From Bacteroidota bacterium (lineage in GTDB: Bacteria; Bacteroidota; Bacteroidia; AKYH767-A; 2013-40CM-41-45): a stretch of 64,000 nucleotides of DNA. Shown piece by piece: positions 9,266-59,809 of this stretch. Below the pieces are notes generated by a model, which ran no database searches, had not been told where the DNA came from, and saw only the letters and a program-made list of their open reading frames with translations. The translations under genes were made by a program, and so were the position numbers. Where the stretch lies: assembly GCA_031417395.1 (NCBI GenBank), contig JANOVM010000057.1:18078-82077 (forward strand), written 5' to 3'. Within the stretch, counting starts at the first letter, position 1. Every line of letters starts with the position of its first letter.

Positions 9266-9282
9266 AGCAGATAAAATCAATA

Positions 9283-10866: not shown

Positions 10867-10933
10867 ACAAATGTATGGCAAGCATGCACCGTGAGCGTTA
10901 TATTACTTTGGGAATGAATTATAGAATTTTGGG
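10867..10933 (-). promoter_or_regulatory. promoter plus candidate operator upstream of the Cys-rich peptide / multicopper oxidase unit (copy B)
   Basis: In gene sense this reads CCCAAAATTCTATAATTCATTCCCAAAGTAATATAA - 21 nt - ATACATTTGT (TAnnTTTG -7 box). It is near-identical to copy A at 9146-9212. Confidence 0.5.
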
Positions 10934-11032
10934 TTTCCTTAAAAGGAAGGTTTATTGCCTTTTATAAGCAAAAGCATTCCACCCGGATAATAGGCGAATA
11001 GTTAATAAAAAGGAAACAGACTAAATGAGCGG

Positions 11033-32187: not shown

Positions 32188-34278
32188 ATGAAAAAAATAA
32201 CTAGTATGAAATTTGTAATTTCTGCAGTATTGTTTGGAGGAATTCTCTTTGGATTAATTGCTACAAACATTATTGATTTAACCGCTTCAAGCCATAGGGA
32301 AGCACCACTAATTGCTAATGATCCTTTGGCTGATAATACCGATTTATATGCATTTCGTAATCCCAACGATACCAATAAAATTGTAATTATTGCGAATTAT
32401 GTGCCGGCTGAATTACCACAGGGCGGACCCAATTATTATTCTTTCGGCGAAAATGTAAGGTATGAAGTCCATGTTAAAAATGGTCATTCCAAGAAAATGA
32501 ATGAAGACGACATCGTTTATCGTTTCACTTTCAAGCAGGTAAACGAAGATCCAACCACTTTTTTTAACATTCGATTGGGCAAACAAAACCTGAAGACGAC
32601 CTATACCTGTGAACGGAGTATGAATGGAGGAAAGTCATTTCAAACAATTGCAACCAATGGAATAGTTCCTCCTAATAACATTGGTCCTCGTTCAATTGAC
32701 GGACCTGTTGGTTTAAACACGCCTTATGCTACTTTACGCACCAATGCACTTAAGCAAGCTTCAACGGGAGAACAAATTTTCTGTGGACCTTCTGATGATC
32801 CTTTCTTTGTGGATTTAGGCGGTATATTTGATTTAGGTCAATCAAGAGACGGTGGTACAGGCGTGGATAGTCCACGCGATGCTCTGGCATGTAAAAACGT
32901 TCACTCCATTTGTTTGAATATTCCAATTTCCACCTTGCAAAAGGATGGTAAAAATGTTACCATGGCTCAGAATATTTTGGATAAAGATTATATTATAGGA
33001 GTTTGGGCAAGTGCAAGCAGACAAAAGATCACCATGCTCGACGACAATGGTGGATCCCCAAAAACTTCAGGAAAATGGATTCAGGTATCAAGAATTGGAA
33101 TGCCTTTAACAAATGAAGTTGTTATTCCAATTGGAGACAAAGATTATTGGAATGCACAAACACCATACAATGAAGTCGCTTTTGAAAAATACTTTATGAA
33201 TCCGGAGCTTGCTTTATACATGGACAACAGTCAGTTTGGTGGAGCAGTACCTGCATTTAGTTCATTGAGAATTCAAACCAACTCATTGCAGGCCTTTGAT
33301 TTTAGGAATACTAAAAACGGATTATTCTCATTGTTAGGTTCACCTGCAGTTACAAATACTGCATTGGATCCTTCAATCTTCGGAAATTATTTACTTAGAG
33401 CTAATAATCCGCGTTCGGTAGATATTCTCCCAATTTTTATGATGGGCGTTCCAAACCTTCCTCCATATCAATTGGCCACAGGAAAAAATGGAAATCCTTT
33501 AGCGGCCGGAAAACCTTTTATTAATAATTTTCTTCCTACCAATGGTGACATGTTGCGGTTGAATATGGCCGTACCGGTAACAGACAGAAATGATCCAAAT
33601 TTTAACTCGCTGGGATTAATATATGCAGCTGTTCTTGGACTAACCGATCCAGCTTACAATCAAAATGCAAGTTTGCAATTTATTCCTAACATGGATGGAT
33701 TTCCGAATGGCAGAAGACTTGAAGATGATGTAACGAGAATTGAGCTGCAGGCTGTGAGCGGCGCAGTACTTGCAGCGATTGGATTATGGTATGATGATTA
33801 TACAGCAGGTGGTCCTAACCCTGTTACACCGGCACTTCTGGGAGTATTGGGTTATAAAACCGGTGTGGAAGAAAACGATACAGCGTTTCAAACACAATTT
33901 CCTTACGTACAAACTCCGTGGAATGGTTACAGTGGGTGCAAGTGTGGTCCGACAGGTTATTACAAGATGGCAAGTACTATTGCACCGATGAATCTTGGAT
34001 TAAATTTAGGAACTCCCGTGAGTGTGATGATGAATTATCCTAATCCCGCTTCTGATAAAACAACCTTTAAAGTGAAACTTATGGAAAATGCAAAGGTCTC
34101 CATTAAGATTTATGATATCAATGGACGAATTATTGCTACACCTTTAAATGAAAATAAAACAGAAGGAACATTTGAAGTACCTGTTGACTTGTCAGATTTT
34201 AATGCAGGAGTATATTTTGCAATATTGTCGAACAATGAACAAACTGTACAGACAGTAAAATTTTTAGTATCTAAATAG
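32188..34278 (+). CDS. secreted DUF4331-like protein with T9SS C-terminal domain
   Basis: The mature N-terminus ASSHREAPLIANDPLADNTDLYAFRNPND...IIANYVP.E.P.GGPNYY is the characteristic start of DUF4331-family proteins, as I recall it. The C-terminus NYPNPASDKTTFKV...GVYFAILSNN is a T9SS CTD. Confidence 0.55.
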   Translation: MKKITSMKFVISAVLFGGILFGLIATNIIDLTASSHREAPLIANDPLADNTDLYAFRNPNDTNKIVIIANYVPAELPQGGPNYYSFGENVRYEVHVKNGHSKKMNEDDIVYRFTFKQVNEDPTTFFNIRLGKQNLKTTYTCERSMNGGKSFQTIATNGIVPPNNIGPRSIDGPVGLNTPYATLRTNALKQASTGEQIFCGPSDDPFFVDLGGIFDLGQSRDGGTGVDSPRDALACKNVHSICLNIPISTLQKDGKNVTMAQNILDKDYIIGVWASASRQKITMLDDNGGSPKTSGKWIQVSRIGMPLTNEVVIPIGDKDYWNAQTPYNEVAFEKYFMNPELALYMDNSQFGGAVPAFSSLRIQTNSLQAFDFRNTKNGLFSLLGSPAVTNTALDPSIFGNYLLRANNPRSVDILPIFMMGVPNLPPYQLATGKNGNPLAAGKPFINNFLPTNGDMLRLNMAVPVTDRNDPNFNSLGLIYAAVLGLTDPAYNQNASLQFIPNMDGFPNGRRLEDDVTRIELQAVSGAVLAAIGLWYDDYTAGGPNPVTPALLGVLGYKTGVEENDTAFQTQFPYVQTPWNGYSGCKCGPTGYYKMASTIAPMNLGLNLGTPVSVMMNYPNPASDKTTFKVKLMENAKVSIKIYDINGRIIATPLNENKTEGTFEVPVDLSDFNAGVYFAILSNNEQTVQTVKFLVSK

Positions 34279-34452: not shown

Positions 34453-35829
34453 ATGAAAAAATATTTTTTTGTTCTATGTTTATTTGTTTTATTACTGCAA
34501 ATTGAAAAGGTGCAAAGTCAATCTTTTAAATTCGCAAATACTATTGATGGTAAATATGCACCTTATGGAATTCGCCGTACAAGCTGGCAATCGGCTACAA
34601 CGGTTTTTAAACTTGATTCGACAGGAAACACTGTGTGGGTTAGAGATTTTTCGGGATATATTGTACCCTCAACATATTCTAACCAATTAATTGGTTCTGC
34701 TTTCGATGGAAAATACTTGTATGTTCTGGAGATACAAGGAGTCGATAATGGTTCGGGTCCTCCTCATACGTATAATCCTGCCATAATTAAATTAGACACA
34801 TTGGGTAATGTGCTTTTTATCGTTAATGCTTCTGTTCAACCGGGCGGAAGTTATAATGTAATTGATATATTTCCTTCACTTACAAATGGCGTTTGGTTAT
34901 TGGATGATTATGCTCCGGGATTTACGCATTATGGAAATGCATTGTATTTTGATAGTTTAGGACAAGCAGGGGTCAATCTTGGATTTTGGTATGGATCTGT
35001 TGCAACGATGAGGGAATTGAAAATTTTACCGGATTCAAATTATATAATATGTGTAAATCATCGACCTTCAGGAGCCGGTATGGGAGATTCATATCCTGCA
35101 TTGACTAAAATTGATGTCCTTGGTACAATTTTATGGCGAAGAGATTTCATCATTACAGGAGCAACTTTTACCGATGGTTTAAGAGAGCTCGTAATGAACA
35201 CTGATAGTTCAGGAAATATTTATTTGATTTGCGATTATTATCAAAACGGAATATCCGGAGTTGCCGGAATTAAAGTTTCTTCTTCAGGCAATTTGTTAGT
35301 TTCAAATCTGTGGACAAATCTTTCCGGAAGTAACGTTAATTCTCTAAAGTTTGAAAACAATGAATTGGTTTGTTCATACAATGGCACGGAAATACATTTT
35401 GATACATTATTAAATAACCCATGCCTTAATGCACAGAATTTACAACTTGCACAGGGCAATCATTTTTTGGGAGGCAGTTATACGCAACAATATTCAAGCA
35501 CTACTTTTTCACCTGTTAATGGAGCACAGCTTACGTATACACCGCAAATATTAACAGATTATTGCAATGCAGCATCTTCTGAGGAGAAAGAGTCGCGCAC
35601 ATCTATTTTAAAAATATTTCCAAACCCGGCTGAAAGTGAAATAAACATCACAACTAATTTTATTGGAACTTGTTTACTGACGATCACTGACCTTCAAGGA
35701 AGAATATGTATTAAAAAGAACAATTGGCCCGGAACTAAAATTGATCTAAATTCTCTAAAGCGGGGAGTTTATTTTATTTCTTTATTTTATGATGACAGAA
35801 GCGAATACAATAAGTTTGTAATAAGGTAA
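34453..35829 (+). CDS. secreted hypothetical protein with T9SS C-terminal domain
   Basis: Signal peptide. C-terminus KIFPNPAESEINITT...GVYFISLFYDD. Confidence 0.6.
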   Translation: MKKYFFVLCLFVLLLQIEKVQSQSFKFANTIDGKYAPYGIRRTSWQSATTVFKLDSTGNTVWVRDFSGYIVPSTYSNQLIGSAFDGKYLYVLEIQGVDNGSGPPHTYNPAIIKLDTLGNVLFIVNASVQPGGSYNVIDIFPSLTNGVWLLDDYAPGFTHYGNALYFDSLGQAGVNLGFWYGSVATMRELKILPDSNYIICVNHRPSGAGMGDSYPALTKIDVLGTILWRRDFIITGATFTDGLRELVMNTDSSGNIYLICDYYQNGISGVAGIKVSSSGNLLVSNLWTNLSGSNVNSLKFENNELVCSYNGTEIHFDTLLNNPCLNAQNLQLAQGNHFLGGSYTQQYSSTTFSPVNGAQLTYTPQILTDYCNAASSEEKESRTSILKIFPNPAESEINITTNFIGTCLLTITDLQGRICIKKNNWPGTKIDLNSLKRGVYFISLFYDDRSEYNKFVIR

Positions 35830-36059: not shown

Positions 36060-38135
36060 TTATGAAACAACAAGCCTCCGAACAAACCGTTTATTATTCA
36101 CCGTCACTTCTACCAGGTAAATACCGGGAGTTAAAACAGGCAAAGTATATTCATGGATTCCGGAAGAAAGGTTTTTGTCCGGTATAGTCACTAGGGTTTG
36201 TCCTAAAATATTTTTTACATCTATAATTACAGTACCGTTTTTATTAAGAGCAAAACTTACCGTAGATGTTCCATAGGAAGGATTGGGAAAAAGGGCAAAA
36301 CCGGTTTGCAGTTCATCTGCTTCATCAATTCCGACGATATTGCCGGTAATATTTATATCATCTATGTAGATGTTGTTGCCTCGATCACTGGTATTCTGAA
36401 ATTTGAAACGCACATTTGCTTTGTTCTGCACCGGATTTGTATTTACATTTTCTAATCTCCATTGACCGGCATTGACAGGAGTAAAATTCGAAGTTAATAT
36501 TCCTGAAGTTGACAAGACTGCTCCTGATTTATTAAAACCTGTAGACGACCATGTTTGTCCGCAATTTATAGAATAGTAAAGTCTCAATTCATCAGTTGAT
36601 GAATTGTTCCGTTGTGCATTTGCAACTTTAAATGATACATTTATCGGGTAACTTACATTGCTAAAATCAATGGAAGGAGTTATCCACGAATCAACTTCTC
36701 CTGCAGTATTGTTATAGTTATTTATTTTAATTGAATGATTGCCGCCTGCAGTTGTATTGGCATTGGATACTCTCGTCCATGTTCCGCTTATTGAGTTATC
36801 CGGATTATCTACCCAGCCATCTATGCCGGGAAAAGAAGCAGAGTCTTCGAAATCTTCGGTAAACGGCATTGTTCTCATAGGTGCAGCGGTTATTCGAACG
36901 GTTGAATTCTTAGTAATAGAATCTGTTCCGCCTGCACTCGTAACAACCAGTGTTGCATTATAAATACCGGCGGCTGAATAATAAACCAAAGGAGCACTGT
37001 CAATACTTGTAGCCGGATTTCCACCCGGAAAGCTCCAGTTCCATGAAGTAACCGGAGCATTCCAGCTTTGGTCAATATACTGAATAGGAGAACCGGCACA
37101 ACTGTAAAAATTGGCCACTGTAAAATCAGCAGTAGGAATGCATATAGCTGCTGTTGATCCATCAGTTCCTGTAGCAATAAGATTTGTTGAAGTCCATAAA
37201 TTATTTCTTCCGCCAATTGGTGAATTTAGTGTTGCAAGCATACGTGTTTTTTGCCCTTGGGTAAACATCTTATCGCAATAAGAATATTCCATATAATTCT
37301 GAACATTTTCAACTATTGGTGGATTGCAATAAGCACCTGTAAGGATGCATTGATTCCATCCAATACTAATAGGGGTATCAGAAACATTATCATCGCCGCA
37401 AGCTACACCCGGGGAATTATTACTTCCCCATACATGGGAAAGGTTTAAATAATGACCAACTTCATGAGTAAGTACTCTGGAATGAAAGAGGCTGCTATAG
37501 CCAATACTTCCCACGTAATTTGCAAGAGACATAACTCCGTCAGTAAGGCTCCATCCACCGGGATATTGAGCATACGCTGCAGCTCCTGACAAGCCCAGGC
37601 TATAGGCAGTCCAGATATTCAGGTATTTGTTATTGGGCCAGGGATTTAGTTTAGAATCGTCATCAGCATTGTACGTTTTGTCAGTATAAATTCGTTCTAT
37701 TCCATTCGTACAATTTCCATTTGGATCGATGGTAGCCAGACGAAATTCAATTTCACAATCGGCAGCAATTGATTTGAAAGCGGGAACAATGTCAACCGTG
37801 TCGTCATTCAATTTGCGAAAATCGCGTGTCATAATATTTACAGCATCAATTACCTGAGCATCAGAAATATTTTCCGGTCCGTATTGATGTAGAATATGAA
37901 ACACTACAGGAATAACATAGATTTGTCGTGTTCCTGTATGCTGCACCCGGGCATTATTTTTATATTGGGTGGTAAAATCTTCCAGGTCTGCTAGATTTTT
38001 TTCATATTCCGGATTTTTCAAAATATCCGCTTTGAATTTTTCCGTAGTAAAACAATGGAGAAGCGTTTCCTGTGCAAATGCATTGGAAAAAGTAACTAAG
38101 GCAAACAGGAGAAATAGATTTTTCATTCGTTTCAA
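36060..38135 (-). CDS. secreted zinc metalloprotease (M43 pappalysin/cytophagalysin-like HExxHxxGxxH) with PKD-like domain and T9SS CTD
   Basis: VLTHEVGHYLNLSHVWG carries the HExxHxxxxxH zinc motif. A signal peptide is present. The C-terminus ALFPNPSYGTSTVSF...GIYLVEVTVNN is a T9SS CTD. Confidence 0.7.
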   Translation of the reverse strand: MKRMKNLFLLFALVTFSNAFAQETLLHCFTTEKFKADILKNPEYEKNLADLEDFTTQYKNNARVQHTGTRQIYVIPVVFHILHQYGPENISDAQVIDAVNIMTRDFRKLNDDTVDIVPAFKSIAADCEIEFRLATIDPNGNCTNGIERIYTDKTYNADDDSKLNPWPNNKYLNIWTAYSLGLSGAAAYAQYPGGWSLTDGVMSLANYVGSIGYSSLFHSRVLTHEVGHYLNLSHVWGSNNSPGVACGDDNVSDTPISIGWNQCILTGAYCNPPIVENVQNYMEYSYCDKMFTQGQKTRMLATLNSPIGGRNNLWTSTNLIATGTDGSTAAICIPTADFTVANFYSCAGSPIQYIDQSWNAPVTSWNWSFPGGNPATSIDSAPLVYYSAAGIYNATLVVTSAGGTDSITKNSTVRITAAPMRTMPFTEDFEDSASFPGIDGWVDNPDNSISGTWTRVSNANTTAGGNHSIKINNYNNTAGEVDSWITPSIDFSNVSYPINVSFKVANAQRNNSSTDELRLYYSINCGQTWSSTGFNKSGAVLSTSGILTSNFTPVNAGQWRLENVNTNPVQNKANVRFKFQNTSDRGNNIYIDDINITGNIVGIDEADELQTGFALFPNPSYGTSTVSFALNKNGTVIIDVKNILGQTLVTIPDKNLSSGIHEYTLPVLTPGIYLVEVTVNNKRFVRRLVVS

Positions 38136-40920: not shown

Positions 40921-43900
40921 ATGATTCGATTTATACAAAGTTTATTAGTTGTCATGTTTTTGTTTCTGTCTTCTTCAGTTGCACAGAACATTAAGATTAA
41001 TGAAATTTGCCCAAGTAATTACATTTCTTTCGAGGATTCCTATGACGAAAGGGGTGACTGGGTAGAATTTTACAATGCAGGAAATTCCAGTATTAATATG
41101 GCCGGAATGTATCTGACGGATAATTTCGCCAATCTCACAAAATTTCAAATTCCTGCTAACAATTCATCCGCTACCACAATAGCTTCTCACGATCATTTAA
41201 TTTTTTGGCTGGATGAAGAACAGTATAAAGGTCCGACACATACCAATTTCAAACTGAGCAATACCGGTGAACGTATTGCACTCGTGGCTTCCGATGGAGT
41301 TACTATAATCGATTCTATTTCCTTTGGTGCAATTACATATGATGTTACCCTTGGACGCACGACGGATGGCAGTTCCTCTTGGAGCTACTTTCCTGTACCT
41401 ACTCCCGACAATAATAATTCAGGCGGGGGTTATTTAGAGATAACAGGTAAAGCGAATTTTGTTCAGTTCGCCGGATTTTATCCTTCAACCATACAGGTTG
41501 AACTTACTTATCCGGATCCGACAGCTTCAATCTACTATTCAATAAATGGAAATGAACCATCACCCACGCGCGGAATATTGTATACCGGTCCCATTACCGT
41601 AAATACAACTACTGCTATGCGAGCGCGTGTATTTAAAGCAAATTATATTCCCGGAGAAGTAACAACAAGTACCTATTTCATCAACAGACCTCACGATCTG
41701 CCCATACTTTCAGTGGTAACTGATTCATTAAATCTATGGGATGAGAATACGGGAATTTATTGTTTTGGTGTAGACGATTACGATCACTCTTATCCTTACA
41801 GCGGGGCTAATTTTTGGGAGGACTGGAAAAAACCTGCACACATTGAATTATTCGAAACATCGGGAGGAGAAGTAATCAGCCAGAATTTAAAACTTTCCAT
41901 TAGCGGCAATACCAGCCGCGCCTATGCACAAAAGTCGCTCAATTTTGAATCAGAGGATGCACTCGGGAAGAAAAATATTTCTTACCAGATTTTTCCTCAG
42001 TTGCCAATTACAGAGTATAAGTCTTTTAAAGTGCGCAACGGAGGATCTGACTGGAGCAGTACAGGTATAAGGGATGCTTTTAACCACACACTTCTCGAAG
42101 GAGCAATGGATGTTGATCACCAGTCTTTCCGGCCCGTTATTCTGTATATTAACGGAGCGTACTGGGGGTTAATTCAAATGACAGAAAAGATCGATGAAGA
42201 TTATCTGAATGCGCATTTTCCGGCTATAGATAAAGACAGTGTGGATTTATTATTCAGTAATGCACAAGTTGCCAATGGTGATGCCAATAGTTACAATGCT
42301 ATGATTAACTACATAGCAAATAATTCCATGACGCAGCAATCAAACTATAACTTCATAAAGAACCAAATAGACATACCGGAATACATCAATTATTATGAAT
42401 CCCGAATTTACTATGCTTCTACAGACTGGCCATATAAAAATCTTTATTTCTGGCGCCCCAAAGACCAGAGCATGAAATGGAGATGGATTATGTGGGATAC
42501 TGACCGGTCAACCTTACTTACAACAAATGCTAATCATCCCTGCAATGTAAACCACAATACTCTTGCCTGGGCAACTACCAGCAGCTCAAACCCCCCATGG
42601 TCTCAGTTCCTAATTAATAATTTACTGCTAAATTCAGAATTCAAATCGCAATTCATTACGCAATTCGCTCATCATATTAATTTTACCTTTTGTCCGAGCC
42701 GAACGGATTCTGTACTGAATGTTTTTAGAAACAGACTCCAGAATGAAATGCCTGCACACATAGCAAGATGGGAGTATTCTAACGATACGCTCGACTATTA
42801 TACTGCAGGTTATTACCATAGTCTTAACCAATGGAATAAGGAAGTTGACACGATTAAATTATTTTATGACAACAGGGCAAATTACATGCGTAAATTCATC
42901 ATGCAACAATTCTCAATCGGAGATACTTCTCATCTATCGTTAGTGAAAAATCCCCCTCAAGGCGGAATTGTTGTTATTGACACATTCAAAGTTCCTTCCA
43001 ATCCTTGCCGTCTGGTTTATTTTGACGGATATCCGGTTACACTAAAAGCAATAGCAAATCCGGGTTATGTTTTTGCAGGATGGACATCAGGCGGAGGAAA
43101 TATTTTACCCTTTAACTGGGTTCCAAACGGAGACACGACTGTAACGGCTTATTTCACTCCCTCATCTGCTACTCAACCCAATCTTGCTTCATCGAATTAT
43201 TCAGCTACAATCACGGGTTGTACAGACATTGATTTAAGCTGGTTTTCCGGAAATGGTTCCTCAAGATTAGTTATAGCCAGAGCAGCTTCGGCTGTTAATG
43301 CTTTACCTCTGGATCTTCAGGGATACGTTGCTGATGCCATTTTTGGTAATGGTTCAAATCTTGGAGGAGGTAACTTTGTAGTTTATTCCGGAAGTGGTAA
43401 TTCCTGTACTGTTACCGGACTTACCGCCGGAGAAACATATTATTTTGCCATAATAGAATTTAATGGAAGCTCCAATACCAGCGATTATTATACTACAAGT
43501 TACCTAACAGGAAATACGATAGCCGCATCTTTTACCGCTTATACAGCAGCTATTTCAAATACAATTTGCCAGGGATCCTCTACAGTAATAACGGCGGGGG
43601 GAGGAGTAACTTACCAATGGTCACCTTCTACCGGTTTATCATCTTTAACAGGAGCTACAGTAACCGCTAGTCCAAACAATACCCTTACCTATACTGTTAT
43701 TGCTACGGATGGCAATGGATGTCAGGCCATATCCAAAATTAAAATCACAGTGAACCCCCGGCCAACAGTTACGCTTAATAATTTTTCAGATGTATGTTTA
43801 TCATCTAATCAGGTTACTTTAACCGGCGGCTCTCCGGCGGGCGGCGTGTATTCTGGAACGAACGTTTCTTCAGGTTCATTTAACATATCAGCTGCAGGTG

Positions 43901-45378
43901 TCGGGAATCATACAATTAAATATCGTTACACAAACACTTATGGCTGCAGCGATTCTGCTTCTGCACAGCTAAAAGTACTCGCACTTCCAAACGTAGCATT
44001 AAGTGCATTTAACAGCGTGTGTTTAAACTCGTCTGCATTTTTATTAAACGGCGGAACACCATCAGGAGGCACATACAGCGGACCGGGAATTAGCGGAGGA
44101 TCATTTAATCCTGCAACTGCCGGTGCAGGGTTACATACAGTCACTTATTCTGTTACAAATAGTTCCGGATGTTCCGGTCAATCTACGTCAACCATTGTAG
44201 TAAATGCTAATCCTAATGTTTCTTTAAATGCATATAGCAATATTTGTCTGGGTGCTTCACCGATTGTATTAAGCGGCGGAACACCATCAGGAGGCACATA
44301 CAGCGGACCGGGAATTAGCGGAGGATCGTTTAATCCTGCAACTGCCGGTGCAGGGTCACATACAGTCACTTATTCTGTTACTAATAGTTCCGGATGTTCC
44401 GGTCAATCTACGTCAACCATTTTAGTAAATGCTAATCCTAATGTTTCTTTAAATGCATTTAGCAATATTTGTCTGAGTGCTTCACCGATTGTATTAAGCG
44501 GCGGAACACCATCAGGAGGCACATACAGCGGACAGGGAATTAGCGGAGGGTCGTTTAATCCTGCAGCTGCCGGTGCAGGGTCACATACAGTCACCTATTC
44601 TGTAACAAATAGTTCCGGATGTTCCGGTCAATCTACCTCAACCATATTGGTAGATGCTATTCCGAATGTTGCATTAAATGCATTTAGCAGTACTTGCCTG
44701 AATGCTTCACCAATTGTATTAAGCGGCGGAACACCATCAGGAGGAAGCTACACAGGACCGGGAGTAAGTTCCGGTTCTTTCGATCCTGCAACAGCAGGAG
44801 TGGGAACACACACTGTCACGTATTCTGTTACGAATAGTTCCGGATGCTCCGGTCAGTCGGCTTCTACTATTTTAGTAAATGTTAATCCAACTATTTCACT
44901 GGGTATTGATACGACGATTTGTGATTTCAATTCCATTCAACTCGATGCGGGAAGCGGATTAAGTTCTTACCTGTGGTCAACAGGTGAAACTTCGCAAAGC
45001 ATAATTGCTGATAGCGCAGGCCATGGATTGGGGACAGTATCCTATAGTGTAACCGGCACCAATGCTTTTGGATGCACAGCGAATGATGACATCAATGTAA
45101 CGTTTGATTTATGTTCTTATATTAATAGCGCACCCCTTCAATCCTCTTTATTAGTATTTCCTAATCCGTTTAGCGATGAAATTACCATTCTGATATCAGA
45201 AAATAATTTCACAATAAATATGTTTGATGTACTGGGCAATATCGTATTCAGCAAGCGGACGAATTCAACAAGTGCCATCATCCAACCTGTTGTTTCGGCA
45301 GGAGTTTATTTCCTCCAGGTTGTGACGGCAAATGGTAGTAAGACGATTAAAGTCGTTAAGACAAATGGAGTAAATTGA
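40921..45378 (+). CDS. giant secreted CotH kinase-like protein with N-terminal lamin-tail domain, chitobiase-C-like domain, tandem SprB-type Ig-like repeats and T9SS CTD
   Basis: The lamin-tail domain is KINEICPSNY...DWVEFYNAG...GMYLTD. CotH-like block: ...VRNGGSDWSSTGIRDAF...ILYINGAYWGLIQMTEKIDEDYL. There are five 75-77-aa repeats (GGTPSGGTYSGPGISGGSFNPATAGAGSHTVTYSVTNSSGCSG). The C-terminus LVFPNPFSDEITILI...GVYFLQVV is a T9SS CTD. Confidence 0.8.
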   Translation: MIRFIQSLLVVMFLFLSSSVAQNIKINEICPSNYISFEDSYDERGDWVEFYNAGNSSINMAGMYLTDNFANLTKFQIPANNSSATTIASHDHLIFWLDEEQYKGPTHTNFKLSNTGERIALVASDGVTIIDSISFGAITYDVTLGRTTDGSSSWSYFPVPTPDNNNSGGGYLEITGKANFVQFAGFYPSTIQVELTYPDPTASIYYSINGNEPSPTRGILYTGPITVNTTTAMRARVFKANYIPGEVTTSTYFINRPHDLPILSVVTDSLNLWDENTGIYCFGVDDYDHSYPYSGANFWEDWKKPAHIELFETSGGEVISQNLKLSISGNTSRAYAQKSLNFESEDALGKKNISYQIFPQLPITEYKSFKVRNGGSDWSSTGIRDAFNHTLLEGAMDVDHQSFRPVILYINGAYWGLIQMTEKIDEDYLNAHFPAIDKDSVDLLFSNAQVANGDANSYNAMINYIANNSMTQQSNYNFIKNQIDIPEYINYYESRIYYASTDWPYKNLYFWRPKDQSMKWRWIMWDTDRSTLLTTNANHPCNVNHNTLAWATTSSSNPPWSQFLINNLLLNSEFKSQFITQFAHHINFTFCPSRTDSVLNVFRNRLQNEMPAHIARWEYSNDTLDYYTAGYYHSLNQWNKEVDTIKLFYDNRANYMRKFIMQQFSIGDTSHLSLVKNPPQGGIVVIDTFKVPSNPCRLVYFDGYPVTLKAIANPGYVFAGWTSGGGNILPFNWVPNGDTTVTAYFTPSSATQPNLASSNYSATITGCTDIDLSWFSGNGSSRLVIARAASAVNALPLDLQGYVADAIFGNGSNLGGGNFVVYSGSGNSCTVTGLTAGETYYFAIIEFNGSSNTSDYYTTSYLTGNTIAASFTAYTAAISNTICQGSSTVITAGGGVTYQWSPSTGLSSLTGATVTASPNNTLTYTVIATDGNGCQAISKIKITVNPRPTVTLNNFSDVCLSSNQVTLTGGSPAGGVYSGTNVSSGSFNISAAGVGNHTIKYRYTNTYGCSDSASAQLKVLALPNVALSAFNSVCLNSSAFLLNGGTPSGGTYSGPGISGGSFNPATAGAGLHTVTYSVTNSSGCSGQSTSTIVVNANPNVSLNAYSNICLGASPIVLSGGTPSGGTYSGPGISGGSFNPATAGAGSHTVTYSVTNSSGCSGQSTSTILVNANPNVSLNAFSNICLSASPIVLSGGTPSGGTYSGQGISGGSFNPAAAGAGSHTVTYSVTNSSGCSGQSTSTILVDAIPNVALNAFSSTCLNASPIVLSGGTPSGGSYTGPGVSSGSFDPATAGVGTHTVTYSVTNSSGCSGQSASTILVNVNPTISLGIDTTICDFNSIQLDAGSGLSSYLWSTGETSQSIIADSAGHGLGTVSYSVTGTNAFGCTANDDINVTFDLCSYINSAPLQSSLLVFPNPFSDEITILISENNFTINMFDVLGNIVFSKRTNSTSAIIQPVVSAGVYFLQVVTANGSKTIKVVKTNGVN
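43753..44883. repeat. five tandem ~225-231-bp coding repeats inside the CotH-like gene (units 3 and 4 roughly 95% identical at DNA level)
   Basis: Unit starts are at 43753, 43984, 44209, 44434 and 44659. Comparing unit 3 with unit 4 by eye shows about 10-12 mismatches per 225 bp. Confidence 0.8.
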
Positions 45379-45732: not shown

Positions 45733-45969
45733 ATGGAAAAGAATCCAATAAAATCATTTGAAAGTTTGAAAGGTCAGGAAGTAGATGGTCAAAATGTAAA
45801 GGGTGGTTTCAGCTTAATTCGCAACGAAGATAATGCCGGCCACTACCATGTAGTTAATTTTGATCGTGCCATGCACAATGCTCTTGATGATGCAAGACAT
45901 CATGGATTTAAGAAGGCAACTTTAACGGATAAAGTTAGCGGCAAATCCACAACATTTATTATTGATTAA
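45733..45969 (+). CDS. double-glycine leader peptide precursor (bacteriocin-like/secreted peptide), copy 1
   Basis: The 25-aa leader MEKNPIKSFESLKGQEVDGQNVKGG ends in GG. A 53-aa Cys-free core follows. A C39-peptidase ABC exporter gene lies downstream. Confidence 0.5.
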   Translation: MEKNPIKSFESLKGQEVDGQNVKGGFSLIRNEDNAGHYHVVNFDRAMHNALDDARHHGFKKATLTDKVSGKSTTFIID

Positions 45970-46294: not shown

Positions 46295-46531
46295 ATGGAA
46301 ACAAACCCAAAAAGATCTATCGACAGCTTGAAAGAACAAGAAGTAGATGGCCAAAATGTTAAAGGCGGATTCGTATTAACCAGCGAAAGCAATGGTACCG
46401 GTTATTACACAGCGGATAGCCCGGATGACAAAAATGCAGCTTTAAATGATGCAAAAATGAAGCATTATAAATATGCGGTAATTACTAACAGAACTACCGG
46501 TGTAGCTAAAACGTTTACTATTGCATATTAA
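46295..46531 (+). CDS. double-glycine leader peptide precursor, copy 2 (paralog of 45733-45969)
   Basis: The leader METNPKRSIDSLKEQEVDGQNVKGG is nearly identical to copy 1 and the core is divergent. The 5' UTR motif AAGGTACAAGAGGTCA is shared at the same distance from the ATG. Confidence 0.5.
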   Translation: METNPKRSIDSLKEQEVDGQNVKGGFVLTSESNGTGYYTADSPDDKNAALNDAKMKHYKYAVITNRTTGVAKTFTIAY

Positions 46532-46755: not shown

Positions 46756-48930
46756 ATGGATTGTGGTCCGACCAGCCTGCGAATCATTGCCCGTTTCTAT
46801 GGCCGAAATCACTCGTTGGAATCGTTACGAAAGAAAAGTTACACCAATCGTGAAGGCTCCAGTTTGTCACAGTTAGCAGCTGCAGCGGAGTCTATTGGAT
46901 TTCGTTCACTTAGTGCAAAAATTGATTTTAAACAGCTTACGGAAGATGCTCCTCTTCCCTGTATTGTGCATTGGAATCAAAATCACTTTGTAGTAGTATA
47001 CAATGTAAAAAACAATAAGGTTTATGTATCCGACCCGGCTTTGGGATTGGTTTCTTATTCCAAAGAAGAGTTTATTGAACATTGGATAGGAGTCGGTGCA
47101 GGTGTTGACAAAAAGGAAGGTATCGTTTTGATGCTGGAGACAACTGCTGAGTTTTTTACGATGGAAGAGGATAAAGGTCCAAAGAAAAAAGGGCTTTCAA
47201 TAATGCTTCCGTACTTGTTTCCTCATAAACGCTATTTAGTACAAATATTATTAGGCCTGCTTGCCGGAAGTATATTATCACTTATTTTTCCTTTCCTCAC
47301 CCAGGCTGTTGTTGATATCGGTATTCGAAACAATGATCTTAATTTTATTTATCTGGTACTCATCGCCCAGTTATTTCTATTCTTCGGGCGTACTGCCATT
47401 GATGTAATCAGGGGTTGGCTGCTTATTCATTTGAGTACCCGGATTAGCATTTCTCTGGTATCAGATTTTTTCACTAAACTAATGCGTCTCCCAATTTCTT
47501 ATTTCGATTCGAAAATGAGTGGAGATATTTTACAACGTATCTCAGACAATAGACGTATTGAACACTTACTTACGGGAAGCTCTTTAAGTGTTTTATTCTC
47601 CTTGATTAATCTGATCTTTTTTGGTTTTATTCTGGCATTTTATGATATCCGGATTTTCCTCGTTTTTGTAGCAGGCAGCGCAATGTATGTAGGCTGGATT
47701 ACTTTTTTCCTTAAGAGGCGAGCAGTTATGGATTACCGCTCTTTTGACCTGCAATCAAAAAATCAGGACAAGGTTTTGGAATTGGTAAATGGAATGCAGG
47801 AAATAAAACTTAACAATGCTGAGCGGTATAAACGATGGGGCTGGGAGCATTTACAAGCTCGTTTATTCAAATTAAATTTAAAACAATTGGCGCTCAATCA
47901 AAGTCAGACTTATGGAGCCGGTGCCATAAATGAAGTAAAAAACATTCTGATATCATTTTTGTCGGCAAGCCTCGTAATAAAAGGCGAGATTACGGTGGGT
48001 GTAATGATGTCCATATCCTATATCATAGGCCAGCTCAACGGACCGGTTAGTGAGTTGGTTAGCTTTATGCATGACATACAGGATGCCCGTTTGAGTATGG
48101 AGCGTATGGCAGAAATTCATAACAGGGAAGATGAAGAACCCCAGGGAGCGGAAAAGATTAATGAATTACCAAAGGAGGGCTCGTTGTTTCTGGATAAAGT
48201 ATCCTTTCAATATTCAGGTCCTGAATCCAGCTGGGTAATTCGTAATATGAATTTAACAATACCCTACAATAAAATTACAGCCATTGTTGGAAGCAGTGGC
48301 AGTGGTAAAACCACTTTATTGAAGCTTTTGCTGAAATTTTATGAACCCGTAAGAGGAGAAATAAGATTAAATACCTATAATTTAAATAATATTTCACAAT
48401 CTGCATGGCGTGAAAAATGTGGTGTGGTAATGCAGGAAGGTTTTATTTTTAATGACACTATTGCTCACAATATAGCAGTAGGAACAGATAATATTAACCA
48501 GGAAAGACTGCAGGAGGCTGTGGAGATTGCAAACATCAGGGAATTCATTGAAGATTTACCTTTAGGTTACAATACAAAAATTGGACAGAATGGTGTAGGA
48601 ATTTCCGGCGGACAAAAACAAAGAATACTTATTGCACGAGCGGTTTATAAAAACCCTGATTATCTTTTATTCGATGAAGCAACTTCTGCTTTAGATGCGC
48701 GGAATGAAAAAATAATAATGGAAAATTTTTCAAGGTGGTTTCAGGGAAAAACTGTTATCGTTGTGGCTCACCGCTTAAGTACGGTTCGTAATGCAGATAA
48801 AATAGTTGTGTTGGAAAAAGGAAGGGTGTCAGAAGAGGGAACACATGAAGAATTAATTGCAATGAAAGGACTTTATTTTGGTCTTGTAAGAAATCAACTG
48901 GATCTTGATAAACTGGATGAAAAAGAATAG
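46756..48930 (+). CDS. peptidase C39 domain-containing ABC transporter (PCAT; bacteriocin/peptide cleavage-export ATPase)
   Basis: N-terminal C39 catalytic context MDCGPTSL...HWNQNHFVVVY. Six-TM ABC exporter core. Walker A GSSGSGKTT, ABC signature ISGGQKQR and Walker B LLFDEATSALD. Confidence 0.85.
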   Translation: MDCGPTSLRIIARFYGRNHSLESLRKKSYTNREGSSLSQLAAAAESIGFRSLSAKIDFKQLTEDAPLPCIVHWNQNHFVVVYNVKNNKVYVSDPALGLVSYSKEEFIEHWIGVGAGVDKKEGIVLMLETTAEFFTMEEDKGPKKKGLSIMLPYLFPHKRYLVQILLGLLAGSILSLIFPFLTQAVVDIGIRNNDLNFIYLVLIAQLFLFFGRTAIDVIRGWLLIHLSTRISISLVSDFFTKLMRLPISYFDSKMSGDILQRISDNRRIEHLLTGSSLSVLFSLINLIFFGFILAFYDIRIFLVFVAGSAMYVGWITFFLKRRAVMDYRSFDLQSKNQDKVLELVNGMQEIKLNNAERYKRWGWEHLQARLFKLNLKQLALNQSQTYGAGAINEVKNILISFLSASLVIKGEITVGVMMSISYIIGQLNGPVSELVSFMHDIQDARLSMERMAEIHNREDEEPQGAEKINELPKEGSLFLDKVSFQYSGPESSWVIRNMNLTIPYNKITAIVGSSGSGKTTLLKLLLKFYEPVRGEIRLNTYNLNNISQSAWREKCGVVMQEGFIFNDTIAHNIAVGTDNINQERLQEAVEIANIREFIEDLPLGYNTKIGQNGVGISGGQKQRILIARAVYKNPDYLLFDEATSALDARNEKIIMENFSRWFQGKTVIVVAHRLSTVRNADKIVVLEKGRVSEEGTHEELIAMKGLYFGLVRNQLDLDKLDEKE

Positions 48931-48933
48931 CAA

Positions 48934-50232
48934 ATGGCTAAGTTAAAAGAAGATATTGGCATTCGTAGTGAAGAGGTTCAGGACATCATGAGCAGGGTTC
49001 CTAACAGGCTCATCAGTCATGGACTTTCCGGAATTTTTCTTCTGATATTATTTGGCATGTTTTTATCCTGGTTTATTAAATATCCTGAAATAATAAGAGG
49101 AAAATTTATTCTAACCACTACCGTAGAACCGGTCAAGTTAGTTAGCCAGTCGAGCGGTGTTATCTCAAAGTTATATGTAAAGGATGGCGATTTTGCCGAG
49201 GCAGGAAAAGTCCTTGCCGAAATTGAAAACCCTTTATCGGCCGGTGCAGCTAATTACCTTCAGAACTATTTAGTAAAATTAGAAAAAGCTATTGAACGGA
49301 ATGCTGACGAATTACCCTTGCCTGATACTATGTTGGTTTCCTTGGGAGATTTGCAGAGTGTAGTGAATTCATTAATGAAAGAACTGCTTGTTTACAACAT
49401 TTCATCTACGTTAAAAATGGACGATGCGGAGATAAACAGCATAAAGAATAAAATTACGAACCAAAATGAAATGATTGCAGTAAATGAAAGAATAATTTCA
49501 ATTACTAAGAAGGATGTTCAAGATTCGAAATTGAAACTGGAAGCGGATGAAAAACTTTACAAAGAGTCATTTATTTCTAAGATGGAGTTTCTTCAATCGG
49601 AATCTGCCTTTAGGTCGAAAGAGTTGTCCCTGGAACAATTGTATCAAAGCCGGTTAAGTCAAAAGAATGTTTTGGATGCACTTGTATTGCAATTTAAACA
49701 GGCAGAATATAGTAAGTATAATAAAGGAAGAACCAACCTCGATGCTATAAAGGGCCTGAGCAAAGACATACGAACTTATGTTTACGGTTGGCAGCAAAAA
49801 TACAATCTTATTGCAATAAAGGCAGGAAGAGTGAATTTTTTGCAGCGCATCCAGGCCGGAAATTTTCTTAAGGGCGGGGAAGAACTTATGGCAATTACTG
49901 AACCCGGAGGAACGTATATGGGAGTGGCAACCGTTCCTGCCGGTGGATATGGAAAAGTTAAAGTCGGACAGGATGTAAATATTCTCCTTCAGAATTATCC
50001 CTACTATGAATACGGCATACTGAAGGGAAGGGTCAGTAACATTGCGCTATTCCCTAATACAAATGAGTACAGAGTTGAAATTTCAATGCCTAACGGCATG
50101 ATGTCTTCCCAGAAACAATTATTGAACTATACTCCGGAAATGGGTGGAGATGCAGAAATTATCACCGAAGACAGAAGAATTTTAGAGCGATTGTTTGATT
50201 CGATTATTAAAGCATTAAAAAGAAAACAATAA
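48934..50232 (+). CDS. HlyD-family membrane fusion/secretion protein
   Basis: Single N-terminal TM helix. Long coiled-coil region. The C-terminal beta-domain has ...VATVPAGGYGKVKVGQDVNILLQNYP. It is 3 bp downstream of the PCAT gene. Confidence 0.75.
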   Translation: MAKLKEDIGIRSEEVQDIMSRVPNRLISHGLSGIFLLILFGMFLSWFIKYPEIIRGKFILTTTVEPVKLVSQSSGVISKLYVKDGDFAEAGKVLAEIENPLSAGAANYLQNYLVKLEKAIERNADELPLPDTMLVSLGDLQSVVNSLMKELLVYNISSTLKMDDAEINSIKNKITNQNEMIAVNERIISITKKDVQDSKLKLEADEKLYKESFISKMEFLQSESAFRSKELSLEQLYQSRLSQKNVLDALVLQFKQAEYSKYNKGRTNLDAIKGLSKDIRTYVYGWQQKYNLIAIKAGRVNFLQRIQAGNFLKGGEELMAITEPGGTYMGVATVPAGGYGKVKVGQDVNILLQNYPYYEYGILKGRVSNIALFPNTNEYRVEISMPNGMMSSQKQLLNYTPEMGGDAEIITEDRRILERLFDSIIKALKRKQ

Positions 50233-52450: not shown

Positions 52451-54037
52451 TCAGGGATGTGCAACAGTTATCACAAGCTTTGCATTATTTTCCACAAGAC
52501 TGAAATCAGAAGATTCAATAAAACTATCGCCTGTCAAATCAGCGTTTAAGTAGCCTGTAAAGAATACTATTGCTTTCGATGATAAAACGGAAACATCTAT
52601 TGAATCAATAACTCCATTTTGATTTACATCACCGCTATAAAGAGCGAAAACTCCACCACCCATATCTTTTAATTGGTTTTGATATGCTTTTGAGGCCAGA
52701 TTGGTAAATGAATAATTAGCAAAGGCACTGCTTAGCATAACCGGTAATGAGCTCCAGGTTTCTATGGAATTTCTATGCTTGACGACAATGTAATAGCTCC
52801 CGGCCACAATCTGAGGGAATGTGAAATTGCCGGTGCCGGCTGTACTAATCGTGCTTTTAGAACTATAGGCCAATACATGATTTGCACCGGGTAAATGTAA
52901 CTCTACAACAACTGTATCGCAAAGCAAAGGGTAAAGCACGGCATTAATTGAAGGCTTCATTATTCCGGCACCTAAATAAAAACCCTGTAAATACATTTGA
53001 ACATTTAATGTCAATGACAAATAATTTACACAGGATCCCGGAGCTGTAAACGGTTTAAACCACCGCAAACAATCCTGTTGGTAACTGAGCGCTTCTGAAC
53101 TGGAAACATCTCTGCAAAGCCAGGCGCTCACATGGGTGCTATCCGGGCATCTTCTTGAAATGGCAAATCCTTCAATATTTACATTCGTGCCCGAAGGATT
53201 AGAAATTGCATATTCTGCTTTAGTGACGAACTTTTTTATACTTCCGGAAACCGTTGTAGTTGTAAGGTTGGTAACTTCCAGTGAATTGCCTGAAGTATTA
53301 TGAAGTATATAGAGCAATCCGGTGGTTTGATCAAAAGCAAGATCACAACTTTCTGTTTTATTTGTCTGATATTTTCCAACATAGACAAAATCATTGCTCA
53401 CATTTGGATTAAGGTCAAAGACCCATATATACCCCTGATCCTGGTGTGAAATGAAAATCAATCCTCCCATACCTTTTACAGAAGTATAAAGTGCTCCCGT
53501 TGACTGGCTGATAAAACCTATTGCTGACAAAAAACTATCGGGAATAAAGGTAATACCTTCCGGCCCGGTATTTCCGGTGTTTGTCATAGGAGAAGGTGCT
53601 GCAAGTATGTTCCAGGATTTCGCTAATGTCAGAGTGGAAAAATCAGACGGATGGGTATATTTTCTTATTAGATAATTATTCTCATCAATATCATAAAATT
53701 CATTGGCATTCAGATTTGCTTGTGTAATTCCTTCCGGTCCTCCGGAAACAGAATTGGCGGCAATCAATGAAAAACTATTTGTAACTGAATTATACTGCAA
53801 TACTTTTAACTGTCCAATATTTGAAATAGTATAAAGTCTTTTTGTAACATCATTCCAGAATAATCCGCTTAACTCAATTATACCGGAAGGATTCAAAATA
53901 GAAGTAAGATTTACAGCACTACTCCATGACTGAGAAGGCCATGCGGTTTGAGCCGTAATCTTATTGGAATACAAAAGCGAAATAAAGAAAACAATATATC
54001 CAAAGAGTAAAAGTGTTTTCTTTTTTTGATAGAACAT
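52451..54037 (-). CDS. secreted phytase-like/SdiA-regulated-type propeller protein with a C-terminal dockerin-like double Ca-binding repeat
   Basis: Signal peptide. ...ELSGLFWNDVTKRLYTISN...GGPEGIT. The C-terminus GDVNQNGVIDSIDVSVL / ADLTGDSFIESSDFSLV resembles paired dockerin type I repeats. There is no T9SS CTD. Confidence 0.45.
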   Translation of the reverse strand: MFYQKKKTLLLFGYIVFFISLLYSNKITAQTAWPSQSWSSAVNLTSILNPSGIIELSGLFWNDVTKRLYTISNIGQLKVLQYNSVTNSFSLIAANSVSGGPEGITQANLNANEFYDIDENNYLIRKYTHPSDFSTLTLAKSWNILAAPSPMTNTGNTGPEGITFIPDSFLSAIGFISQSTGALYTSVKGMGGLIFISHQDQGYIWVFDLNPNVSNDFVYVGKYQTNKTESCDLAFDQTTGLLYILHNTSGNSLEVTNLTTTTVSGSIKKFVTKAEYAISNPSGTNVNIEGFAISRRCPDSTHVSAWLCRDVSSSEALSYQQDCLRWFKPFTAPGSCVNYLSLTLNVQMYLQGFYLGAGIMKPSINAVLYPLLCDTVVVELHLPGANHVLAYSSKSTISTAGTGNFTFPQIVAGSYYIVVKHRNSIETWSSLPVMLSSAFANYSFTNLASKAYQNQLKDMGGGVFALYSGDVNQNGVIDSIDVSVLSSKAIVFFTGYLNADLTGDSFIESSDFSLVENNAKLVITVAHP

Positions 54038-58066: not shown

Positions 58067-59809
58067 ATGAAATCACTCATGAACATTAAACTCGTTTTTG
58101 TTGTCGCTTCGTTCACGCTTCTTATTTTAGTTTTCGAAAAATCAATGGCACAATCACCGGATTGGCTTTGGGCTAATAAAATAGGTGGTTCAAGCAGCGA
58201 TAAAGGACAAGCAATAGCTACCGATGCTTTTGGAAATGTGTATACTACAGGATCATTCAAAGGACAAGTTGATTTTGATCCGGGCTTAGCCGTAAATTAT
58301 ATTACATCAGGCGGAGACCTGGATATATTCATTTCTAAGTTGGATGCATCAGGTAATTATTTATGGGCAAAAGCATTTGAAGGAATTAATACGGATGAGG
58401 GCTTATCGATAACTGTTGATGCTTCCGGAAATATTTACACTACGGGATATTTTCAAGGCACAGTTGATTTTGATCCTGGTCCGGGAACCTATAATATGAC
58501 TTCTGCGGGAGTGTTTGATGTTTTCATTTCTAAACTGGATGGTTCCGGTAATTTTATTTGGGCAAAACGAATGGGCGGATCCGGTATTGATGAAGGTAAG
58601 TCAATAGCAATCGATTCTTCCGGATATGTTTATGCAGCAGGCTATTTTTCAGCAACTGCAGATTTTAATCCTGATTCAGCAAATAGTTTTAATTTGACTA
58701 CTGCCGGTGGGAAAGACATATTTATTTCCAAACTTGATAATCAGGGAAACTTTGTATGGGCAAAAGCAATGGGTGGAACAGGAGGGGACGAATGTCTTGA
58801 TTTAATACTTGATGCTTCCGGAAATGTTTTTATCTCAGGTTATTTTGTTCAAACTGCTGACTTTGATCCGGGAGCCGGAACGGTTAATCTTACTTCTGCA
58901 GGAGGCAGCGACATATATATTTCCAAATTGGACAACTCAGGAAATTATGTATGGGCAAAATCAATTGGTAAAACAAATCCCGATTGGGGGTATTCAATCG
59001 CCCTTGATAATTTTGGTAATATTTATACAACAGGTTATTACTCAGGAATAGTCGATTTTGACCCGGGGCCCGGCTATTTTGATTTAACTTCTACAGGAAG
59101 CAATTCAATTTTCATTTCCAAATTGGACAGCTCCGGCAATTTTGTTTGGGCTAAGTCAATGGGAGGAAACGGATTTGCAACTGCATATTCAATAGCAATT
59201 GATATTGCAGGTAGCGGAGATGTATACACTACAGGTTATTTCTCAACTACGGTCGACTTTGACCCGGGATCTGGAATTGTAAATATTACTTCTAACGGTA
59301 ACGATGATATTTTTATTTCCAAATTGGATTCTTCCGGCAATTTTGTTTGGGCAAAAGCAATTGGCGGAACAAATGCAGATTACGGTCAGTCGCTTGCTAT
59401 TAGTTCAACCGGAAAAATATATTTGACAGGATGGTTTTCAAGCGCATCTATATCCTTTGGAACATTCTCTGTGGCAAATACAGTTACAACCGGATTTCCG
59501 GAAATTTTAATTGCCAAACTGGATAATTTAATTAATGGAATTGAACCATCTGTAAATGGCAATAGGGTATCTGTTTATCCAAATCCTGCAAGAGATCAAC
59601 TAATTATTGAATTGAATGGAATGCACAGAAATTTGGAAATTTCTTTATATGATCTAACAGGAAAAATCATTCCGGTAAGAATCGATAACTCGGCTGAAAA
59701 TACGTACAGGGTAGGGAATAATGTTCTTGATCAATCTCCCGGAATTTATTTAATGCAAATTAAAACAGATGATTTTATTGAAACAAAAAGAATAGCCATT
59801 ATTAAATAG
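58067..59809 (+). CDS. SBBP-repeat beta-propeller protein with T9SS C-terminal domain
   Basis: About 8 repeats of the type SGN.IWAK..GG...D.G.SIA.D.SGNIYTTGYF.GT.DFDPG. The C-terminus VYPNPARDQLIIELNG is a T9SS CTD. Confidence 0.7.
   Translation: MKSLMNIKLVFVVASFTLLILVFEKSMAQSPDWLWANKIGGSSSDKGQAIATDAFGNVYTTGSFKGQVDFDPGLAVNYITSGGDLDIFISKLDASGNYLWAKAFEGINTDEGLSITVDASGNIYTTGYFQGTVDFDPGPGTYNMTSAGVFDVFISKLDGSGNFIWAKRMGGSGIDEGKSIAIDSSGYVYAAGYFSATADFNPDSANSFNLTTAGGKDIFISKLDNQGNFVWAKAMGGTGGDECLDLILDASGNVFISGYFVQTADFDPGAGTVNLTSAGGSDIYISKLDNSGNYVWAKSIGKTNPDWGYSIALDNFGNIYTTGYYSGIVDFDPGPGYFDLTSTGSNSIFISKLDSSGNFVWAKSMGGNGFATAYSIAIDIAGSGDVYTTGYFSTTVDFDPGSGIVNITSNGNDDIFISKLDSSGNFVWAKAIGGTNADYGQSLAISSTGKIYLTGWFSSASISFGTFSVANTVTTGFPEILIAKLDNLINGIEPSVNGNRVSVYPNPARDQLIIELNGMHRNLEISLYDLTGKIIPVRIDNSAENTYRVGNNVLDQSPGIYLMQIKTDDFIETKRIAIIK

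Follow-up and report, generated by a model that had tools for sequence, protein, structure and literature searches.

Bacillus CotH phosphorylates CotB and CotG in the spore coat, and the B. subtilis CotH mutants D228Q and D251A are inactive (PMC7821199). CotH domains of secreted proteins are common among environmental Bacteroidota and their relatives, in cellulosomes and in fungi, and the role of an apparently intact kinase outside the cell is a puzzle. A cellulosomal CotH protein of Clostridium thermocellum has the architecture lamin tail domain (LTD)-LTD-Fn3-CotH-dockerin. Proteins carried by the type IX secretion system (T9SS) are exported by Sec and translocated in dependence on a C-terminal domain (CTD), which is then removed as the protein is covalently attached to the cell surface. 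For Periscope proteins, it has been proposed that stalk repeats are gained and lost because of their high DNA identity, which would vary the projection of the head (PMC8201768). Here we describe a complete CotH gene (40921-45378, plus strand; 1485 amino acids (aa) plus stop) in a stretch of 64,000 nucleotides (nt) from a Bacteroidota bacterium (assembly GCA_031417395.1, contig JANOVM010000057.1, positions 18,078 to 82,077), hereafter called the window. We propose, with moderate confidence in the explanation as a whole, that its product is a T9SS cargo in which a CotH head, probably active outside the cell, stands on a rod of immunoglobulin (Ig)-like domains whose length is set by recombination.

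At the DNA level, Tandem Repeats Finder (TRF) reports a single array at 44042-44888, with a period of 225 nt, 3.8 copies, 89% matches and zero indels. Read in frame, the array belongs to five tandem Ig-like stalk units of 225 nt or 75 aa, u1-u5, which start at 43759, 43984, 44209, 44434 and 44659 and cover 43759-44883 on the plus strand (aa 947-1321). A reading made from the letters alone, referred to here as the sequence-only reading, had counted five units, and a hidden Markov model (HMM) of the unit finds the same five strong 75-aa units. Identity between them is uneven. In DNA, u1 is only about 52% identical to the others, u2 and u3 share 86%, and u4 and u5 share 78%. The units u3 (44209-44433) and u4 (44434-44658) differ at exactly 12 of 225 nt (94.7% identity), for which the sequence-only reading had given about 10-12. 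The corresponding protein identities of neighbouring units are 47% for u1/u2, 80% for u2/u3, 93% for u3/u4 and 77% for u4/u5.

The closest-matching register was found by sliding a segment of 225 nt against its neighbour 225 nt downstream. It identifies the youngest duplicated or converted block, at 44049-44498 on the plus strand, whose two copies (44049-44273 and 44274-44498) differ at 6 nt and are 97.3% identical. DNA identity across u2-u4 is thus 86-97%, and the closest pair of copies lies out of domain register. At the 225-nt offset, the boundary 44048/44049 marks an abrupt fall in mismatch density, with about 50% before it and about 2% after it; the density then rises gradually toward the 3' side. 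This left breakpoint corresponds to codon 22 of u2, within the domain. Compared with u3, u2 is a mosaic, with about 58% identity over its first 65 nt and 97.5% over its last 160 nt. Such a pattern is what an unequal crossover, or a conversion tract, would leave behind when its breakpoint falls inside a domain. Copies at the 225-nt offset share exact runs of up to 57 nt, the longest of which starts at 44252. An exact tract of this length is enough for homologous recombination.

The ages of the copies were estimated from synonymous (dS) and nonsynonymous (dN) divergence by the Nei-Gojobori method. For u3 and u4, dN is 0.031, dS is 0.129 and dN/dS is 0.24. Comparison of u5 with u2-u4 gives a dS of 0.7-1.1 and a dN/dS of about 0.15. 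With dN/dS among u2-u5 between 0.15 and 0.42, purifying selection acts on the copies; the units are genuine protein domains under selection and differ in age. The array is relatively recent, though not brand new. The sequence-only reading had proposed a recent expansion or gene conversion, and the protein comparison places this event within the present lineage. The units u2-u5 are 77-93% identical to one another and at most 63% identical to any unit of an orthologue, which indicates that they arose or were homogenised in this lineage. They cluster together, apart from the units of the orthologues. The closest match of u1 (64%), in contrast, is its orthologous counterpart, the first unit of a 15-unit orthologue (P0002). 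Adjacent units in orthologues are 41-66% identical, and TRF found no DNA-level repeats at three orthologous loci.

Stalk length differs between relatives of this gene. The 90%-identity cluster of the protein has one member, and its nearest relatives, at 54-68% identity, come from metagenomes and from metagenome-assembled genomes (MAGs) named 'Bacteroidetes bacterium' or 'Bacteroidia bacterium'. Scans of genome and metagenome contigs gave no same-species copy, only orthologues of 47-68% identity. Within the close clade the head is collinear, and the 75-aa unit is present in 0, 1, 2, 3, 5 (this gene), 10 or 15 copies. Repeat number evolves among orthologues. In a related MAG, contig QQVM01000012.1 (L003; also L004) carries two CotH paralogues in tandem, at positions 5974-11547 and 11818-15822 of L003. 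The former has 10 stalk units in 1857 aa and the latter 3 units in 1334 aa, so that duplication of the whole gene can give one genome two heads on stalks of differing length. The 75-aa unit is also found, in 2-5 copies, in large CotH-less proteins of related MAGs (a minus-strand open reading frame (ORF) of about 1716 aa at L001, and proteins at L009 and L010). Its presence in proteins without CotH indicates a stalk module shared among surface proteins of these bacteria.

Each unit contains two conserved cysteines and the motif GGxPxGGxYSG, and C13 and C63 are invariant in the unit alignment. The AlphaFold2 (AF2) model of the unit is all-beta with a pLDDT of 93. Foldseek matches this model to Ig-like stalk domains with a probability of about 1.0 and modest E-values of 3e-3 to 1e-1. 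The matches include the cadherin-like modules of SraP, the neck of GhpA (9flp, 29% identity), the grappling-hook protein of the T9SS-bearing Aureispira, and Rib, PKD and Big_3 domains. A profile of the unit, searched against PDB sequences, retrieves one chain, Anabaena All3314 (7b5h, 1.7e-8). The best Pfam matches of the units are all sub-threshold (Big_9, Bact_surface_Ig-like and HYR). The repeats had been labelled SprB-type in the sequence-only reading, and this label has to be given up. Of 46 units, taken from this protein and its orthologues, not one matches the SprB repeat family PF13573 at E <=0.1, single units do not match it even at E <=1, and the modelled fold is that of Ig-like domains in general. 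As modelled, the unit is a generic Ig-like stalk module.

The head contains the CotH domain, which was modelled over aa 256-680 (41686-42960, plus strand) and is delimited by Pfam at aa 326-656. The match to PF08757 scores 133.2 bits against a gathering score of 23.8 (E 1.9e-38) and covers profile positions 2-322 of 322. The AF2 model of aa 256-680, built from a 20-sequence alignment, is a predicted structure with a pLDDT of 88.1 and a pTM of 0.88. When it was compared with the PDB by Foldseek, the B. cereus CotH kinase (5jd9/5jda) came out on top, with an E-value of about 4e-14, a probability of 1.0 and TM values of 0.65/0.76. Other matches, to PI3K, Fam20 and HipA, were weak (E >0.01). By this modelling, the block is a genuine CotH domain with the predicted atypical-kinase fold.

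The catalytic residues were located with the B. cereus 5jd9 sequence from the PDB as the reference, which was aligned by hhalign to the profile of the family over 311 columns. In this alignment, D502-x4-N507 ('DWPYKN', 42424-42441) corresponds to the D-x4-N of 'NFDGFVHN' in B. cereus CotH, D526 ('WDTD', 42496-42498) to the first Asp of 'WDYD', and K338 ('AQKS', 41932-41934) to a Lys of 'EKKS'. The putative roles of these residues are those of the catalytic loop (D502 and N507), the metal-binding Asp (D526) and the ATP-binding Lys (K338). Conservation among 119 homologues is nearly complete (K338 in 116, D502 in 112, N507 in 119 and D526 in 119). The two Asp residues are separated by 24 residues in this protein and by 23 in Bacillus CotH. 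We take D228 and D251 of B. subtilis to fall on the B. cereus motifs, on the basis of the 23-residue spacing and of the B. subtilis sequence. The sequence-only reading had left room for a CotH-like block that lacks the catalytic residues. The check for such a loss found the Asp, Asn, Asp and Lys all kept on the profile alignment to B. cereus CotH. Judged from these residues, the head is unlikely to be a dead scaffold; it most probably works as an ATP-dependent phosphotransferase or, at the least, binds nucleotides.

Around the CotH domain and the repeats, Pfam and NCBIfam bear out the order that had been read from the sequence, namely lamin tail, chitobiase-C-like domain, CotH, Ig repeats and CTD. 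The protein begins with a predicted Sec signal peptide (40921-40983, plus strand), MIRFIQSLLVVMFLFLSSSVA, whose n, h and c regions were read off the translation. Predicted cleavage after it would leave Gln (Q) as the N-terminus. The LTD follows at 40972-41325 (aa 18-135; PF00932, E 2.6e-13, 50.7 bits against a cutoff of 34.3). A chitobiase/hexosaminidase C-terminal-like domain, CHB_HEX_C_1 or Fn3_assoc, is located at 41470-41676 (aa 184-252; PF13290, 7.4e-12; PF13287, 4.2e-10). These two domains are probably targeting or binding modules. Four parts are additional to the earlier description. A divergent InlB B-repeat (Flg_new_2, PF18998) lies at 43024-43161 (aa 702-747; 3.2e-07 in the whole protein, 4.5e-09 as a fragment). 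The stretch at 43162-43533 is tentatively a weak Fn3-like spacer, with sub-threshold matches to Pur_ac_phosph_N, NDNF and fn3. An Ig_7 domain, the CHU_C-associated Ig-like type, occupies 43534-43758 (aa 872-946; PF19081, 2e-08 and 34.9 bits on the fragment). The fourth is a degenerate sixth Ig-like unit behind u5, at 44884-45108 (aa 1322-1396), which has a 10-bit match to the unit HMM and no Pfam match. The protein ends with a C-terminal sorting domain at 45154-45360 (aa 1412-1480). The T9SS CTD of the sequence-only reading is thereby confirmed as type A, since both TIGR04183 (47.9 bits, cutoff 23) and PF18962 (Por_Secre_tail; 38.8 bits, cutoff 27) score above their cutoffs. All these features are on the plus strand, and alignments with orthologues span residues 1-1482 of the 1485-aa protein.

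These parts suggest how the protein may reach the cell surface and be anchored there. The Sec signal peptide would bring it to the periplasm, and the type A CTD would direct its export by the T9SS. Once the CTD had been cut off, the protein would be attached to the cell surface by its new C-terminus. Next to this anchor, Ig_7, the five 75-aa units and the degenerate unit would form a rod. The rod would hold the N-terminal head, composed of the LTD, the CHB_HEX_C-like domain and CotH, off the cell in the manner of a Periscope protein or fibrillar adhesin. Stalk length would be set by the number of 225-nt units and may change by unequal homologous recombination or gene conversion. The head may act on an extracellular or cell-surface substrate as a phosphotransferase or a nucleotide-binding module. 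Por_Secre_tail or CHU_C CTDs are also present on six further ORFs of the window, suggesting that the organism has a working T9SS; T9SS machinery genes were not seen in the window.

Several points weigh against this explanation. With regard to the stalk, the dS of 0.13 for u3/u4 means that array turnover is not very fast. The nearest DNA is 63-68% identical, and the length variation between strains that the sequence-only reading expects is a prediction. The units of the 15-unit orthologue are too diverged for TRF, and high DNA identity is not a constant property of the stalk. The near-identical units could instead stem from a one-off and fairly old duplication kept by purifying selection, in which case copy number would be fixed in the species and the units would be ordinary spacers without Periscope behaviour. 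The dS values of u3/u4 and of u5 against u2-u4 (0.7-1.1) fit this view, as do the longest exact tract of merely 57 nt and the diverged state of orthologues with 10-15 units, in which adjacent identity is 41-66% and TRF gives no signal. The occurrence of the 75-aa unit in non-CotH proteins is likewise expected of a generic spacer. However, the abrupt switch at 44048/44049 from about 58% to 97.5% identity within u2 argues for a later conversion or duplication event. Unit number also varies widely among orthologues of 54-66% identity and between the tandem paralogues (10 and 3 units). We regard a single old duplication as possible but doubtful. It is far less plausible, and in our view highly improbable, that the array is an artefact of metagenome assembly, made of strain variants stitched in tandem or of a collapsed longer array. 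The closest relatives are all MAGs, so that the present genome is probably one as well, and extra copies that are perfectly identical would escape short reads. Nevertheless, the array is exactly in frame with zero indels, and its copies differ from their neighbours at least every 57 nt, so that reads of at least 100 nt resolve them. The differences between u3 and u4 are biased to synonymous sites (dN/dS 0.24), as in real paralogous units, and orthologues independently carry multi-unit arrays. The sequence-only reading had named the repeats as a place where assemblies collapse. Collapse is unlikely here because the longest exact run is shorter than an ordinary read and the copies present can be resolved; the concern is limited to hypothetical extra identical copies.

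The CotH head meets reservations of its own. Searches of the PDB by sequence only (phmmer and a 20-sequence profile) found no match to the CotH region, and the link to 5jd9 was therefore made through structure prediction, Foldseek and hhalign. On an absolute scale the hhalign match between the family profile and B. cereus CotH is weak, with a probability of 46% and an E-value of 2e-4, and the residue equivalences are based on this match together with motif logic. To our knowledge, neither the periplasm nor the medium is a source of ATP for an enzyme outside the cell. For the extracellular CotH proteins of cellulosomes, a role has not been agreed (PMC12484212). These points leave room for a head in which CotH is not used as a kinase and serves as a binding or structural, adhesin-like domain. 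The protein would then be a fibrillar adhesin whose LTD, CHB_HEX_C-like and CotH domains bind a polymer or a cell. Cellulosomal CotH proteins of the CseP type are discussed as structural or plant-cell-wall-binding components. CotH proteins of Mucorales are invasins. The flanking LTD, CHB_HEX_C-like and Ig-like domains are typical binding or spacer modules, and no gene for a kinase substrate or partner is conserved beside the CotH gene. Against such a role stands the near-invariance of the catalytic Asp, Asn, Asp and Lys in 119 homologues from several phyla, which a purely structural role would not require. A non-kinase head thus seems to us a tentative alternative rather than a probable one. 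The favoured explanation, a T9SS cargo with a recombining stalk and a probably active head, can also be carried further. An active, T9SS-displayed extracellular kinase may act on surface or environmental substrates while recombination in the stalk tunes its reach. It might, for example, phosphorylate polymers that the LTD and CHB_HEX_C-like domains recognise, or stalks rich in Ser and Thr on other surface proteins close by. In this extended form we consider the proposal unlikely.

The CotH gene is apparently monocistronic, with AT-rich spacers of about 400 nt on its 5' side and 1.4 kb on its 3' side. Promoter and terminator scans around the gene gave signals at chance level and were uninformative. 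Its neighbours encode a POT-family transporter, a response-regulator receiver protein, an M43 peptidase and two other T9SS-CTD proteins, and a C39-peptidase ABC exporter and an HlyD protein follow downstream. No conserved operon partner was found; the response-regulator fragment and the M43 peptidase recur near single orthologues only. Without a conserved neighbour, the context gives no functional clue. The sequence-only reading had taken three antisense ORFs of 63-68 aa (43938-44144, 44178-44369 and 44403-44594, minus strand) for by-products of the repeats. Their 225-nt spacing and near-identical translations fit this, and they lie wholly within the homology-supported coding region.

The window is dense in T9SS cargo. 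The six other T9SS-CTD ORFs are located at 2999-6628 (minus), 28276-30540 (plus), 32188-34278 (plus), 34453-35829 (plus), 36060-38135 (minus) and 58067-59809 (plus). Two of them have type B CHU_C domains with PKD arrays. The other four have type A Por_Secre_tail domains and include a DUF4331 protein, an M43 metallopeptidase and an SBBP beta-propeller protein. Downstream of the CotH gene, two paralogous 78-aa ORFs (45733-45969 and 46295-46531, both plus) have a common N-terminal leader with a double glycine at its end, ME.NP.(K/R)S(F/I)(E/D)SLK.QEVDGQNVKGG, followed by F. Neither peptide has a Pfam match. They lie directly 5' of the C39-peptidase ABC exporter (46756-48930, plus) and the HlyD-family protein (48934-50232, plus), and the whole looks like a precursor and exporter locus for a bacteriocin or secreted peptide. 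At 15479-18910 (plus), a 1143-aa protein combines Reg_prop beta-propeller repeats and Y_Y_Y with an adenylate/guanylate cyclase catalytic domain at its C-terminus. In this fusion of sensor and cyclase, the cyclase takes the place of the histidine-kinase output that is more usual. The sole Pfam signal of a 528-aa protein at 52451-54037 (minus) is a weak C-terminal Dockerin_1 match (E 5e-06, with no single stretch above threshold). Such a signal is curious in the same genome as a cellulosome-like LTD-Fn3-CotH protein.

The architecture is widespread and already named, and the repeat behaviour is ordinary evolution of the stalks of bacterial surface proteins; nothing here is categorically new. 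Two questions make the gene interesting: the function of secreted CotH kinases, and the possibility that proteins anchored through the T9SS vary in length in the Periscope manner. A literature search for CotH combined with T9SS found no relevant study. As the head retains every catalytic motif, its activity is directly testable. The stalk, with its recent and datable expansion, is a test case for a T9SS-anchored version of the Periscope strategy, which was described for Gram-positive adhesins. Were the head indeed an active displayed kinase, Bacteroidota and the FCB group would possess, in their hundreds of LTD-CotH-CTD proteins, a system of extracellular phosphorylation that has gone unrecognised. 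In annotation, the three antisense ORFs should be left out of the gene list, and short-read assemblies of this locus are reliable for the copies they contain.

In comparison with known systems, Bacillus CotH has the same predicted fold as the head of this protein, with equivalent D-x4-N, metal-binding Asp and N-lobe Lys, at an identity of about 14-18%. It is a single-domain protein that the mother cell produces and that becomes part of the spore coat, whereas the present protein is predicted to be secreted, has 1485 aa and many domains, and belongs to an organism that probably uses a T9SS. Cellulosomal CotH proteins (C. thermocellum CseP/Cthe_0044 and Cthe_0239, and CotH of anaerobic-fungal cellulosomes) have an extracellular CotH domain that follows LTD and Fn3-like modules, as is predicted here. 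Their C-terminal module tethers them to the cell surface by dockerin-cohesin contact in place of a T9SS CTD. They have no Ig-repeat stalk, and the present gene has no cellulolytic gene context. The SprB and CHU_large adhesins are also Bacteroidota T9SS cargo with long Ser/Thr/Gly-rich arrays of Ig-like domains, and one domain adjacent to the units, Ig_7, is of the CHU_C-associated type. SprB-like proteins, however, have type B or CHU_C CTDs, whereas this one is of type A (TIGR04183).

Periscope proteins and fibrillar adhesins (SasG, Rib, Sgo_0707, Esp and CdrA) share with the present protein a C-terminal anchor, a stalk of tandem domains and a distal N-terminal head. Here the CTD is C-terminal, the LTD-CotH head is N-terminal and the repeats lie next to the CTD, and anchoring is predicted. 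The model of the unit resembles Rib and other Ig-like stalk domains. A further likeness is the high identity within the stalk (up to 93% in protein and 97% in DNA) together with homologues of varying repeat number. According to Whelan et al. (2021), Periscope repeats are operationally those of more than 50 residues with at least 80% identity (PMC8201768). By this measure, the 75-aa pairs u2/u3 (80%) and u3/u4 (93%) are within the class, and u4/u5 (77%) and u1/u2 (47%) fall below it. Anchoring would depend on the T9SS instead of sortase and LPXTG, and only 3-4 units reach the class-defining identity. The class is defined by repeat variation between strains, whereas the counts compared here are from different species or genera.

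The family to which the gene belongs is the LTD/T9SS-CTD 'CotH kinase family protein' of NCBI/PGAP, which has the same N-terminal head of about 700 aa and the same type A CTD. It comprises hundreds of homologues at 30-67% identity. The sequence-only reading had remarked that the architecture would place a CotH-type domain on the surface of a non-sporulating bacterium. Such a location is not unusual, for about 100 of the best 120 database matches share LTD, CHB_HEX_C, CotH and the Por_Secre_tail CTD, and cellulosomes too have LTD-LTD-Fn3-CotH proteins. These matches span Bacteroidota, Ignavibacteria, KSB1, Latescibacterota and Marinimicrobia, and many relatives already bear the name 'CotH kinase family protein' or 'T9SS C-terminal target domain-containing protein'. 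By these domain matches, the combination of head and CTD is common and already annotated. It is the stalk that differs. Most homologues are without the 75-aa unit, which is present only in the closest clade, in 0-15 copies, and among the CotH homologues compared only this gene has units at 86-97% DNA identity.

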